Shown: positions 39,478 to 43,368 of the stretch, in pieces | How the letters are laid out: every line of letters begins with the position of its first letter | How positions within the stretch are numbered: position 1 is the stretch's first letter | NCBI GenBank assembly: GCA_016195325.1 | Contig: JACPZX010000067.1 | Location: forward strand, 15,559 to 79,558 | Reading direction: 5' to 3' | Length of the DNA stretch: 64,000 nt | DNA from: Acidobacteriota bacterium | Lineage (GTDB): Bacteria; Acidobacteriota; Polarisedimenticolia; JACPZX01 | Notes under the pieces: model-generated | The model's input: only the letters and a program-made list of their open reading frames with translations | Told to the model about the DNA's origin: nothing | Database searches by the model: none | Position numbers and translations under genes: made by a program

Positions 39478-41877
39478 TCACTCGTGCCGGATCGCCCCCC
39501 ACGGGTCCACCCGGGCGGCGCGAAGGGCGGGGACGGCGCTCGCGGCGACGGACACCGCGACGAGCCCGACGGCGATGACCGCGAACGTGAGGGGATCCGC
39601 AGCCCCCACGCCGTAGAGTTGCGCTGAGAGGGTCCGCCCGAGCGCCAAACCCCCCGCCGCCCCGATCGCGACGCCGGCCAGCGTGAGCCTCAGCGCGCTT
39701 CCCACGACAAGGCTCACGATCTCGCGCGGCTCGGCGCCGAGCGCCATGCGGATGCCGATCTCCGATCGCCGACGGCTCACCCAGTACGACGTCACGCTGT
39801 AGATCCCGACACCCGCGAGCGCCGCGGCCAGCGCCGCGAAGCCGGCGACGAGCGTGAGGAGATAGCGACGGCCGGCGACCGAACCCGACACGACGTCGTC
39901 CATCGTGCGGAGGCTCGCGATCGGAAGATCGGGGTCGAGTGCGCGAAGGCGCGCGCGCAGCGTCCCGGCCAGCGCGAGCGGCTCCCCCGCCGTCCTCACG
40001 ATCACCGACATCGACGCGATCGCGCGCTGGTTCGACGAGAGGTAGAAGGCCTCGCGCGCCGGGGCGTCGAGCGATTGATCCCGCATCCCCGACACGACGC
40101 CGACGATCTCGAAGAGGGTCGCCCCCTTCCCGAGCACGGCGTGCCGCCCGACCGCCTCGGTCCCGGGGAAGAACCGGCGCGCGAACTCCTCGGTGACGAC
40201 GATCTTGATCGGCGAGGCGCCGTCGTCGGCGCCGGTGAAGACCCGGCCGCGCGTCACGCGGATCCCCAGCGTCCTGAAGAACCCCGGGCTCACCGTGTCG
40301 AAGGAGACGACCGACCGCTCCCCCGGCGGCGGGATCGCCCCGCCGTCCACCGCGATGAGCGTCTGCGCCCCGGTGCCGGCGAGAGGGAGCGCCTCCGCCG
40401 AGCCGACCGAGACGACGCCCGGCAGAGCAGAGACCTCCTGCTCGACGCGCTGGAAGAGGGCGCGGATCTGCGGCGGGCCCGGATACTTCGACGGGGGCAG
40501 GTGGAGCTCCGCGACGAGGATGTGATGGGGATCGAAACCGGGGTCCGTCCGCAGGACGAAGATGAAGCTCCGCACGAGAAGGCCCGCGCCGATCAGAAGG
40601 ACGATCGAGAGGCCCACCTCGGCGACGACGAGCGCGCTCCGGGTCCGGCGCTCGCGATGTCCCCCGGCCGAAGCCGGCCCCGCCTCGCGCAACGAAGCGT
40701 TCAAGTCCGCCTTTGAAGCATGGACAGCCGGCGCGAGGCCGAAGACGATTCCCGTCAGGAGCGAGAGGGCCGTCGCCGCGAGGAGCACCCTGAGATCGAT
40801 CGTCGCCCCCGCGGCGCGCGGGATCTGCGCGGCGGCCCCCGAGGCGAGAAGGGCGAGGGCGCCCCGGGCGAGCGCGACGCCGACGGCCCCCGCCGCGAGG
40901 GCGAGGACGAGGCTCTCCCCGAGGAACATCGCGATGAGGCGTCCGCGGCTCGCGCCGAGCGCGGCGCGGAGCGCGATCTCGCGCCCGCGGGAGGCGGCGA
41001 GCGCCAGGAGGAGGTTCGCGACATTCGCGCACGCAATGGCGAGGACGAAGGCGACCGCCCCCGCGACGAGGAGAAGCGTCGGGCGCGCGGCCGCGGCCTG
41101 GGGCTCGCCCAGAGGGGCGCTCGCGTAGGAGAGGTTGGCGTCGAGCCCCTCGGGTCGCTTGTCCCGATCCGCGAGAAGGTCGAGCTCGGCCTGCGCCTCC
41201 GGGCGCGAAACTCCGGGGCGGAGGCGGGCGAGGACGTCGAGATATCCGGCGCCGCGATCGACGGCGCCCGCGGTCATGAACCCGGGCTCGAAGACGCGCG
41301 GGATCCAGAGGTCGGCCGCCGTCGCGGGATAGCCGATGTCGGCGGGGAGGACGCCGACGACGGTGTGCGGCGTCCCGTTCAGCGAGATCGATCGGCCGAC
41401 GACGCCCGGATCGGATCCGAAGCGCGACTCGAAGAGGGCGTGGCCGAGGAGGACGGCGTCGGGGCCTCCCTTCATCTCCTCCGCGGCGTTGAAGCCGCGG
41501 CCGATCGCAGGCATCACGCCGAGGACGTCAAAGATCCGCTCGGAGACGCGCAGCGCCCGAAGTTGCTCCGGCTCGGCGACCCCGGTGAGGTTGACGGTGT
41601 CGATCGTGGACGCGGCGACGCTTCCGAACGATCGCCCCTGATCGGCGAGGGCGAGGAACCGCTGGTGCGAGAAGGGGACGCGATCCGCGTCCCGCCCGGC
41701 GGAGCCCCCCCAGATCTGGAGGATGCGCGCAGGCTCGGGGTACGGCAGCGGCCGGATGAGGACGGCGTCGACGACGCTGAGGACAGCCGTCCCCGCGCCG
41801 ATCCCCAGTGCGAGCGTCGCGATCGCGAGGGCCGCCGCCCCCGGATGTCGCGAGAGGGCGCGGAGAGACCGGCTCAG
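39478..41877 (-). CDS. MacB/FtsX-like ABC permease ('ADOP' family), apparent non-AUG (CUG) start
   Basis: The in-frame continuation immediately after the gcvPB TAG encodes [49 protein letters not shown]..., the conserved N-terminus and TM1 of this family. The first canonical start (GTG/ATG 41517/41514) lies downstream of TM1. There are two FtsX domains, the C-terminal one ending at 39478. Confidence 0.6.
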   Translation of the reverse strand: [799 protein letters not shown]

Positions 41878-43368
41878 CTACCCCTCGCGCGTGTACCGGA
41901 GCCGGGGGCGCCTCGCCGCCTCGGCTTCGTCGAGCCGGCCGATCGGCGTCGTGTGCGGCGCCTTCCGCACCATCTCAGGGTCTTCGTCCGCCTCGGCGGC
42001 GATGGAGCGCATGGCGGCGATGAAGGCGTCGATCTCGGCCTTCGACTCCGTCTCCGTCGGCTCGATCATGATCGCGCCGTGCACCACGAGGGGGAAGTAG
42101 ATCGTCGGGGGGTGGAAGCCGTAGTCGAGGAGGCGCTTGGCGACGTCGAGGGTGCGGACCCCCTTCGGCTCGAGAAGCCTGTCGCTGAGGATCGCCTCGT
42201 GGAGCGACGGCGTCTCGAAGGCGACGGGGTAGAGGTCCTTGAGCTTCGCCCGTATGTAGTTCGCGTTGAGGACCGCCCGCTCGGCGACCATGCGGAGGCC
42301 GTCGGGGCCGAGCGATCGGATGTAGGCGAGGGCGCGGACGTGCATGCCGAAGTTCCCGAAGAAGGACGAGACGCGCCCGATCGAGTCGGGGCGATTCTCG
42401 GCGAGGACCAGGCGTCCCGACGACTCCTCGACGAGAGGGGTCGGGAGGTACGGCTCGAGGACCTTCGACACGCCCACCGGCCCGGAGCCGGGCCCGCCGC
42501 CGCCGTGCGGCGTCGAGAAGGTCTTGTGGAGGTTCAGGTGCAGGACGTCGATCCCCATGTCGCCGGGGCGCGCGATGCCGACGAGGGCGTTCATGTTCGC
42601 CCCGTCCATGTAGACGAGGCCCCCCTTCTCGTGGACGGCGGCGACGATCCCCTCGATCTCCTCCTCGAAGATGCCGAGGGTGTTCGGATTCGTGAGCATC
42701 AGCCCGGCCACGTCCTCCGTCATCTTCGCGCGGAGCGCGGCGAGATCGATGCACCCCCTGGGGTTCGTCGGGATCTGCTCGACCTTGTAGCCGGCCATCG
42801 CGGCGCTCGCGGGGTTGGTCCCGTGGGCCGAGTCGGGGACGAGGATCGTCGAGCGCGGGCGGCCGCTCTTCACGTGATGGGCGCGGATCATGAGGATGCC
42901 GACCATCTCGCCGTGCGCGCCGGCCGCCGGCTGGAGCGTGAAGCGGGGCATCCCCGTGATCTGGCGGAGCGACTTCTCGAGCTCCCAGATCACGCGGAGA
43001 CATCCCTGCACCGTCTCGGGATCCTGGAGCGGATGCGCGCGCCCGAGACCCTCCACGCGCGCCAGCTCCTCGTTGATCTTCGGGTTGTACTTCATCGTGC
43101 ACGAGCCGAGCGGGTACAGCCCGAGATCGACGGCGTAGTTCAGGCGCGAGATGCGGACGAAGTGGCGGACGACGTCCACCTCGCTGACCTCGGGCATCCC
43201 GTCGATGGGGCCGCGCCTCACGCTGTCGGGGATCTTCGAGAGATCGGCTTCCGGCACGTCGAGGGGGGGTAGGGAGTGCCCCACCCGCCCGCGCGATCCG
43301 ACCTCGAAGATCGTCGGCTCGTCCCTCAGGACCCCGGCTCTGCGGGGGGCTCTCGGGTCGGCGCTCAC
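41878..43368 (-). CDS. gcvPB: glycine dehydrogenase (decarboxylating) subunit 2
   Basis: GTG start gives VSADPRAPRRAGVLRDEPTIFEV...YPLGSCTMKYNPK..., a full GcvPB with the PLP-lysine region. The start overlaps the gcvPA stop (GTGA). Confidence 0.9.
   Translation of the reverse strand: MSADPRAPRRAGVLRDEPTIFEVGSRGRVGHSLPPLDVPEADLSKIPDSVRRGPIDGMPEVSEVDVVRHFVRISRLNYAVDLGLYPLGSCTMKYNPKINEELARVEGLGRAHPLQDPETVQGCLRVIWELEKSLRQITGMPRFTLQPAAGAHGEMVGILMIRAHHVKSGRPRSTILVPDSAHGTNPASAAMAGYKVEQIPTNPRGCIDLAALRAKMTEDVAGLMLTNPNTLGIFEEEIEGIVAAVHEKGGLVYMDGANMNALVGIARPGDMGIDVLHLNLHKTFSTPHGGGGPGSGPVGVSKVLEPYLPTPLVEESSGRLVLAENRPDSIGRVSSFFGNFGMHVRALAYIRSLGPDGLRMVAERAVLNANYIRAKLKDLYPVAFETPSLHEAILSDRLLEPKGVRTLDVAKRLLDYGFHPPTIYFPLVVHGAIMIEPTETESKAEIDAFIAAMRSIAAEADEDPEMVRKAPHTTPIGRLDEAEAARRPRLRYTREG

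Follow-up and report, generated by a model that had tools for sequence, protein, structure and literature searches.

A permease gene in an Acidobacteriota gcv operon with a predicted CUG start next to the gcvPB stop codon

The last gene of a gcv operon in an Acidobacteriota metagenome-assembled genome (MAG; GenBank assembly GCA_016195325.1) encodes a duplicated MacB/FtsX-type permease of the ADOP family whose conserved N-terminus is not preceded by any in-frame ATG, GTG, or TTG start. The window analyzed here is a 64,000-nucleotide stretch of contig JACPZX010000067.1 (positions 15,559 to 79,558), and coordinates below are window positions unless another contig is named. The canonical start is missing in two independent assemblies; in both, the sequence is constrained as far as the CTG region, a CTG codon is kept in frame, and the gcvPB stop and the permease start are tightly apposed. 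This is a genuine and conserved feature under selection. Sequence comparison suggests, with a probability that we put at roughly 0.65, that the permease starts at a CUG abutting the gcvPB stop codon, that this start is coupled to gcvPB termination, and that an ancestral GTG start was deleted. No new mechanism is proposed, as CUG starts and termination-reinitiation are both established; the value of the case lies mainly in annotation and as an evolutionary example, not in mechanistic novelty.

The gcvPB gene (minus strand, 41878..43368; glycine dehydrogenase subunit 2, Pfam GcvP2_C and GDC-P) encodes the C-terminus ...RLRYTREG and ends in CGC GAG GGG TAG. Its TAG (41880-41878) lies in the permease frame and is immediately followed, in that same frame, by a CTG codon (41877-41875). 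TAG is an ordinary stop here, terminating 8 of the 44 confident open reading frames (ORFs) in the window. Read from the CTG, the permease ORF spans 799 codons (39478..41877, minus strand), through the TGA at 39480-39478. The hexamer GAGGGG (41886-41881), formed by the last two gcvPB codons, resembles a Shine-Dalgarno (SD) element and lies 3 nt from the CTG (5 nt for its GAGG core); its role is uncertain, the spacing of its counterpart in the closest orthologue being ~1 nt. An earlier note, made by a model from the DNA alone, had drawn attention to this arrangement, and the positions that it gave for the gcvPB stop, the CTG, the GAGGGG, and the first downstream ATG and GTG were all correct on checking.

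The same note had recognized the N-terminus and first transmembrane helix (TM1) of a MacB/FtsX-type ADOP permease directly after the TAG, and family models bear this out. The NCBIfam ADOP model (TIGR03434) gives 853.6 bits, well over its curated cut-off of 622.3, with residues 4-799 aligned to positions 8-803 of an 803-position profile, so that family homology begins at codon 4, upstream of every in-frame ATG, GTG, or TTG. Pfam places two copies each of PF12704 (MacB_PCD) and PF02687 (FtsX) on the protein, the first MacB_PCD match beginning at residue 16. TM1 occupies residues ~13-39 (41761..41841; Kyte-Doolittle peak of 2.0), as indicated by hydropathy and the start of the MacB_PCD match, and is conserved in both orthologues described below; scanning residues 45-155 by hydropathy revealed no other hydrophobic segment. 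The first canonical start codons in the frame are a GTG at 41517 and an ATG at 41514 (codons 121 and 122; together 41512..41517), which are past TM1, in the periplasmic domain, and neither of which has an SD. Because no other hydrophobic segment precedes residue 155, a start at 41517 would drop TM1, as the earlier note had also held. Among near-cognate codons, the CTG is the only one between the in-frame TAG and TM1; the next is an ATC at codon 19 (41821..41823), within TM1 itself.

The closest database protein (P0001, 91% amino acid identity) is encoded on a 9.1-kb contig (L001) from an independent soil metagenome, with the same gcvT-gcvH-gcvPA-gcvPB-permease order. The JGI call for this protein is 764 aa long and begins at a GTG past TM1. 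At the L001 junction, which reads cgcgaggaCTGAgagcgctctcccgccatccgggg, the gcvPB TGA (5361-5363) overlaps a CTG (5360-5362), from which the permease frame continues as CTG AGA GCG CTC TCC CGC CAT CCG GGG (L R A L S R H P G). From there on, no ATG, GTG, or TTG occurs before the GTG at 5453, which is past TM1; in the other direction, the next canonical codon in frame is found ~375 codons upstream, within gcvPB, and the 40 codons upstream of the L001 CTG contain no near-cognate codon. The GTG at 5453 corresponds to GTC in the window, and the downstream canonical codons differ between the two genomes. In the N-terminal region of the window permease there is also a run of seven G residues (atctgggggggctcc; 41709-41715, minus strand), which is shorter and interrupted in L001; the frame around it is intact in both sequences, with no sign of homopolymer error.

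Substitution patterns between the window and L001 (Nei-Gojobori method) are those of a coding sequence both before and after the first canonical start. In the 116 aligned codons before that start, the ratio of nonsynonymous to synonymous substitution rates (dN/dS) is 0.133 (dS 0.505; 36 synonymous versus 16 nonsynonymous differences, Fisher p=2e-11), and it is 0.132 in the remaining 679 codons of the permease. The 31 codons preceding the L001 GTG have a dN/dS of 0.145 (p=0.004). Across the 39 nt from the CTG to the ATC, six substitutions produce a single amino acid change, an outcome as conservative as that seen in 1.3% of random placements (P=0.013). The permease ORF is intact in both genomes, without frameshifts or stops. 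Indels between the two sequences differ on either side of the CTG: the difference downstream measures 12 nt and keeps the frame, and the one upstream measures 4 nt, which is not a multiple of three. Given the low dN/dS, the constraint on the 39 nt, and the contrast between the downstream and upstream indels, the region up to the CTG has behaved as coding sequence.

A third, more distant syntenic orthologue (P0003, 56% identity, locus L163) retains a canonical start and provides the comparison for the history of the junction. Its sequence reads gaa gcC TGA GC GTG GAC CTC CTG ATC CGC GAC CTG CGG TAC, and its permease starts at the GTG, 2 nt past the gcvPB TGA and at position -31 from a conserved Gly, the modal position in the family; a CTG AGC lies in frame just before this GTG. 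The candidate CTG is therefore found in frame in all three orthologues, and the distances from start to conserved Gly are -31 for the L163 GTG, -24 for the window CTG, and -20 for the L001 CTG. In the protein alignment against L163, the first seven residues are absent in the window and the first 11 are absent in L001. Because L163 has CTG AGC followed by a GTG at the family-typical position, the canonical start appears to have been lost by in-frame deletions. The ancestral permease would have started, as in L163, at a GTG placed where the family usually has its start, 2 nt past the gcvPB TGA. An in-frame deletion of 27 nt immediately after CTGAGC would then have removed GTG GAC CTC CTG ATC CGC GAC CTG CGG, with the additional in-frame 12-nt difference arising between the window and L001; the 4-nt difference upstream of the CTG would have switched the gcvPB stop, yielding TAG in the window and the TGA of CTGA in L001. 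The earlier note had raised the prospect that orthologues in this clade begin after TM1; L163 instead starts seven codons further upstream, with GTG, and L001 has no canonical start.

Other loci add little to this comparison. The locus of P0002 (L162) ends at a contig edge before the N-terminus and is uninformative for the junction, and none of the loci of P0004, P0005, and P0006 is syntenic with gcvPB. A search with the N-terminal 200 aa of the permease recovered distant fragments only, and a look-up of the GcvPA protein of the window returned one 2.6-kb contig, which includes neither junction. A DNA pattern such as CAYCCNGGNGCNNNNGCNCTNGCNATHGCNACNCTNGC could serve to recover syntenic orthologues of 56%-91% identity.

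Within the ADOP family as a whole, the state of the window permease is uncommon. The family background consists of 288 ADOP N-termini in 161 paralogous loci of ~40% identity among the matches listed, plus L164; the paralogue search, run with the permease as query over metagenome and genome collections, was driven by the generic motif IACANVAN, and no orthologues occur among the matches listed. A canonical start lies 26-60 codons upstream of the conserved Gly (LALGIG) in 275 of these 288 N-termini, exactly at -31 in 163 of them, and is ATG in 206, TTG in 46, and GTG in 23 of the 275. One of the others is cut at a contig end, and most of the remaining 12, which include a truncated fragment (L006), have an ATG at -61 to -109, which fits longer N-terminal extensions. 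At most a few of the 288 listed N-termini have no canonical start at all. Like other members of the family, which are MacB/FtsX-type permeases of ATP-binding cassette (ABC) transporters, the window permease has a full-length match of ~800 aa with two MacB_PCD and FtsX halves, and it keeps the LRxLxRxPG...LALGIG N-terminus with TM1. It differs in lacking the family-typical canonical start ~31 codons before the Gly and in an N-terminus seven residues short of the norm (-24 versus -31), a departure that concerns the start and the length of the tail rather than membership. On this distribution, loss of the canonical start is a derived and rare state.

Translation of the permease would most likely begin at the CUG (UAG-CUG in the window, a CUGA overlap in L001), which would be decoded as methionine by the initiator tRNA. 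Initiation would be carried out mainly by ribosomes finishing gcvPB, through termination-reinitiation or local unfolding, a strong SD being the less likely driver. The expected outcome would be a low level of full-length permease, proportional to that of gcvPB, with the positively charged cytoplasmic tail and TM1 retained. Among coupled configurations in prokaryotes, NTGA is the most frequent (PMC12548453), and experiments have demonstrated termination-reinitiation at overlaps of this kind (PMC6728339). As in coupled stop/start pairs of the NTGA and TGATG types (PMC6728339; PMC12548453), gcvPB and the permease are same-strand neighbors, separated by 0 nt in the window (TAGCTG), -4 nt in L001 (CTGA), and +2 nt in L163 (TGAgcGTG). 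Unlike typical NTGA pairs, N is C here, which gives a CUG start, the coupling is predicted from layout, and the SD is badly spaced in L001. CTG is an initiator in translation table 11 and is occasionally annotated as such, and CUG initiation in E. coli reaches ~1-2% of that at AUG (bioRxiv 10.1101/063800). Because gcvT, in the same operon, needs an SD-spaced CTG (discussed below), CUG starts are plausible in this lineage; additionally, the NCBI pipeline chose the same CTG for the permease (MBI3449798.1). Rare non-canonical bacterial starts comprise CUG, AUU, AUC, and AUA, an example being the AUU of infC in E. coli. The permease resembles such cases in having a near-cognate codon where conserved protein precedes any canonical start; it differs in being predicted from sequence, and in that its origin by deletion of a GTG beside an in-frame CTG can be traced via L163.

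Several points weigh against this reading. Both the use of CUG as the initiating codon and the dependence on gcvPB translation are matters that we infer. The SD-like element is ill placed, at 3-5 nt from the CTG in the window (GAGGGG or GAGG) and ~0-1 nt in L001; since GAGGA abuts the CTG in L001, SD-driven de novo initiation of the permease is doubtful. Of the GAGGGG-TAG layout that the earlier note had put forward in favor of coupling, the tight stop/start geometry stands and the argument from the SD is weak. RNA folding at the gcvPB/permease junction is no more stable than in shuffled controls (z of -0.76 in the window and -0.69 in L001), which leaves the unfolding variant of coupling without specific support. 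For the sister orthologue, NCBI picked the ATC and not the CTG. Conservation of the CTG is partly explained by other constraint, because its TG belongs to the gcvPB TGA in L001 and L163. The feature is common to two genomes only, with a single syntenic outgroup, and dN/dS averages over the whole divergence and is blind to a recent loss of expression.

Among the alternatives, initiation at the ATC inside TM1 (41823-41821; 5402 in L001) is unlikely. This codon is also a table-11 initiator, about equal to CUG in E. coli (bioRxiv 10.1101/063800), it is kept in the window and in L001, and an NCBI record (HZE89434.1) starts there; the CTG, which the earlier note had taken for the sole candidate initiator, is better described as the best one. 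However, no SD lies within 4-11 nt of the ATC, the product would come without its positively charged cytoplasmic tail and would have only the last two thirds of TM1, and the homologous codon in L163 is a GTC in a normally translated helix. The 39 nt upstream of the ATC look coding, with a single amino acid change, and the 12-nt indel in that interval keeps the frame. A further alternative is that ribosomes reinitiate close to the gcvPB stop but at a different codon or in a different register, and not at CUG specifically. The same evidence, which places the start of translation between the stop and TM1, serves this reading; the SD is badly placed, and for many non-near-cognate codons in E. coli initiation amounts to 0.01-1% of that at AUG (bioRxiv 10.1101/063800). 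Such a start is nonetheless improbable, as CUG was 10-100x better than non-near-cognates in the sole systematic measurement (bioRxiv 10.1101/063800) and is conserved in frame in all three orthologues. We consider it quite unlikely that the permease is not properly expressed, being either a young pseudogene or a TM1-less product from the GTG at 41517 (5453 in L001). Loss of the start through deletion is compatible with this, callers limited to ATG, GTG, and TTG do give such products (764 aa in L001, 679 aa in the window), and very recent inactivation would be invisible to dN/dS. Yet the ~2.4-kb ORF is intact in both lineages after a dS of ~0.4, dN/dS is 0.13 on both sides of the canonical start, and the downstream canonical codons are not conserved, the L001 GTG being GTC in the window; in a TM1-less product, moreover, the periplasmic domain would stay in the cytoplasm.

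A fusion of GcvPB with the permease through recoding, for which the window would need readthrough of UAG and L001 a frameshift, is very unlikely, even though the window has both ORFs in one frame, with the TAG alone between them, and a cytoplasmic domain before TM1 is topologically possible, as in MacB. The L001 permease frame is offset from gcvPB by the CTGA overlap, so that close relatives would have had to acquire two distinct kinds of recoding; L163 has a GTG start after the stop, TAG is a normal stop elsewhere in the window, and neither a recoding signal nor significant structure was found at the junction. The notion that the true start is missing or displaced through faulty sequencing or assembly, which the earlier note had entertained as a recurrent artefact, finds some footing in the metagenomic source of the assembly, in the small indels by which the junction differs from L001, and in the apparent absence of one NCBI protein accession between the permease and gcvH. 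It is extremely improbable, however, because the independent assembly of L001, from another sample and with different flanks, has no canonical start at the permease or at gcvT, and the frame is kept and under purifying selection in the N-terminal region.

If the CUG start holds, the permease gene outlived the deletion of its start codon since a junction with translational coupling offered a near-cognate codon in frame, and the ancestral state and two derived states can be compared. Were both the CUG start and the coupling true, the arrangement would represent a natural means of holding a permease at a small, fixed fraction of an upstream enzyme.

The first gene of the operon, gcvT (45111..46241, minus strand; 376 codons from CTG), is a stronger case of a CTG start than the permease. 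Upstream of its first ATG (46169), the gcvT frame encodes ...LSDTSPTPVRKTPLNETHRALGAR-M. TIGR00528 scores 410.4 bits on GcvT against a cut-off of 235.85 and aligns residues 10-367, counted from the CTG, with profile positions 2-362; the GcvT structures from B. subtilis and T. maritima (PDB 1yx2 and 1woo) align from residues 9-10 on the same count. The ATG at 46169 falls at residue 25, within the conserved TPLxxxHxxxGA segment, and a start there would cost the protein ~15 conserved residues. Ahead of the CTG stand GGGAGG and a 5-nt spacer, CATCC (46239..46252, minus strand), and L001 has the same arrangement of SD, 5 nt, and CTG (GGGAGG CACTC CTG AGC; L001 979-1000). The two genes are alike in having CTG AGC as first codons, no canonical start before a conserved N-terminus, conservation in L001, and NCBI annotation from the CTG. 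They differ in that gcvT is a first gene with a textbook SD for de novo initiation, whereas the permease CTG is at a stop codon, with a weak SD.

Upstream of gcvT, a leader of ~110 nt (TCCGCCTGAAGAGCGACC...CGGGAGGCA; 46242-46360, minus strand, and L001 ~890-996) is near-identical in the two genomes despite a dS of ~0.4. A comparison of this leader with Rfam identified no family and no glycine-riboswitch match, the best hit being atpB RNA (E=0.2). The stretch is a candidate for a regulatory leader not described before.

The earlier note had treated gcvT and the permease as two independent CUG candidates, had attached significance to their shared CTGAGC, and had suggested that non-AUG initiation might be systematic in this organism. 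The two genes are, however, the first and last of a single operon. CTGAGC was rejected as a motif, as it occurs 22 times in the window against ~45 expected; that it is conserved at the permease is owed to the gcvPB TGA. To place other starts, the remaining confident ORFs of the window were translated from stop to stop and their N-termini positioned with NCBIfam models, frame plots, and start lists. All of the ~25 other genes with N-terminal information fit an ATG, GTG, or TTG that coincides with model position 1 or lies upstream of it, frequently preceded by a good SD, which does not support systematic non-AUG initiation. These genes include Orn, DinB (with a TTGA overlap), an UmpAB-like antiporter, arylformamidase, an MshE-like protein, a MocR/PdxR-like regulator, an MFS transporter, GldA/F/G-like proteins, MltG, an Hvo_1808-like protein, Maf, an amino-acid permease, an extracytoplasmic function (ECF) sigma factor and its anti-sigma factor, HemD, a CcsB-like protein, RseP, UppS, and TruA. 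A CTG start is thus needed by two of ~27 evaluable genes in 64 kb, both in one operon. ATG, GTG, and TTG make up ~99.95% of annotated starts in model genomes (bioRxiv 10.1101/063800); two of ~27 is far above the annotated rate of other starts, yet the sample is too small and too clustered for a lineage-wide claim. That this uncultured lineage has relaxed start-codon discrimination, with CUG a regular initiator at several percent of genes, is rather unlikely; if it were true, standard callers restricted to ATG, GTG, and TTG would truncate many of the lineage's proteins.

Other candidate late or non-canonical starts in the window were rejected or gave no family match. A third potential CTG start (GGAGG, 5 nt, and CTG at 15576, at the MocR/PdxR-like gene) is not required, since the ATG at 15534 fits the family models. 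Family matches show the late-start ORFs at 30557-32401, 31795-33570, 5564-6565, and 26831-27997 to be ordinary genes with canonical starts inside long upstream-open frames. The long late-start ORFs at 9585-11459 and 21242-24043 have no family match.

Exact-sequence look-ups identified NCBI entries for several of these proteins. MBI3449798.1, titled "ABC transporter permease [Acidobacteria bacterium]," is the window permease ORF with Met at the CTG, identical except for M in place of L at residue 1, and MBI3449801.1, from the same MAG, is GcvT read from its CTG. HZE89430.1, from a third-party annotation (TPA) MAG that is labeled Verrucomicrobiae and resembles L001, likewise presents GcvT from its CTG. 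The permease of the L001-like MAG (HZE89434.1) begins MATLALGVG, which corresponds to the L001 ORF from the ATC at 5402; NCBI starts for permease orthologues of 91% identity therefore disagree, with CTG in one record and an ATC inside TM1 in the other. CTG starts for these genes are thus already in GenBank as computational annotation, and no experimental or published treatment of them was found. The JGI calls truncate both proteins, to 764 aa for the permease and 352 aa for GcvT. Callers limited to ATG, GTG, and TTG cut TM1 from the permease in this way, take 24 conserved residues off GcvT, and would likewise leave a 679-aa ORF in the window. The accessions MBI3449798 (permease), MBI3449800 (GcvH), and MBI3449801 (GcvT) leave one number for gcvPA and gcvPB together. 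The NCBI protein set contains neither the GcvPA (452 aa) nor the GcvPB (496 aa from GTG) of the window as an exact match, and the GenBank record may carry one of the two genes under a different annotation or as a pseudogene.

Stop and start codons are closely spaced throughout the operon, in which gcvT is the first gene and the permease the last. The gcvT/gcvH junction is TGATG, the gcvT stop overlapping the ATG of gcvH (44725..45111, minus strand; product identical to MBI3449800.1), and the gcvH/gcvPA junction is TGAcATG. The gcvPA gene (43365..44723, minus strand) encodes 452 aa, a length equal to that in L001, and its stop overlaps the GTG start of gcvPB as GTGA. A promoter and terminator scan over the operon found nothing, and Rfam and tRNA scans of the window returned no matches.

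In the closest GcvPB relatives (74-86% identity; five loci, L165-L169), a convergent Maf gene directly follows gcvPB and there is no permease, which makes them uninformative for the junction. It follows from this gene order that the permease joined the gcv operon as a derived addition. In the window, ~6.4 kb separates gcvPB from Maf (34839-35486), and the interval (34839-41877) contains the permease, one unassigned ORF, the ECF sigma/anti-sigma pair, and the amino-acid permease. In L163, the order is gcvPB, permease, and amino-acid permease.

Two further starts in the window were noted in passing. Upstream of the MocR/PdxR-like gene (15534-15610, minus strand), a promoter-like TTGACT-16 nt-TAGGAT precedes the GGAGG, 5 nt, and CTG 15576; this CTG, a possible though not a required start, is 14 codons before the ATG at 15534, which has no SD. 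The DinB-like gene apparently starts at a TTG that overlaps the upstream TGA as TTGA (3736-3739, minus strand), an NTGA-type junction with the rarest of the canonical start codons.

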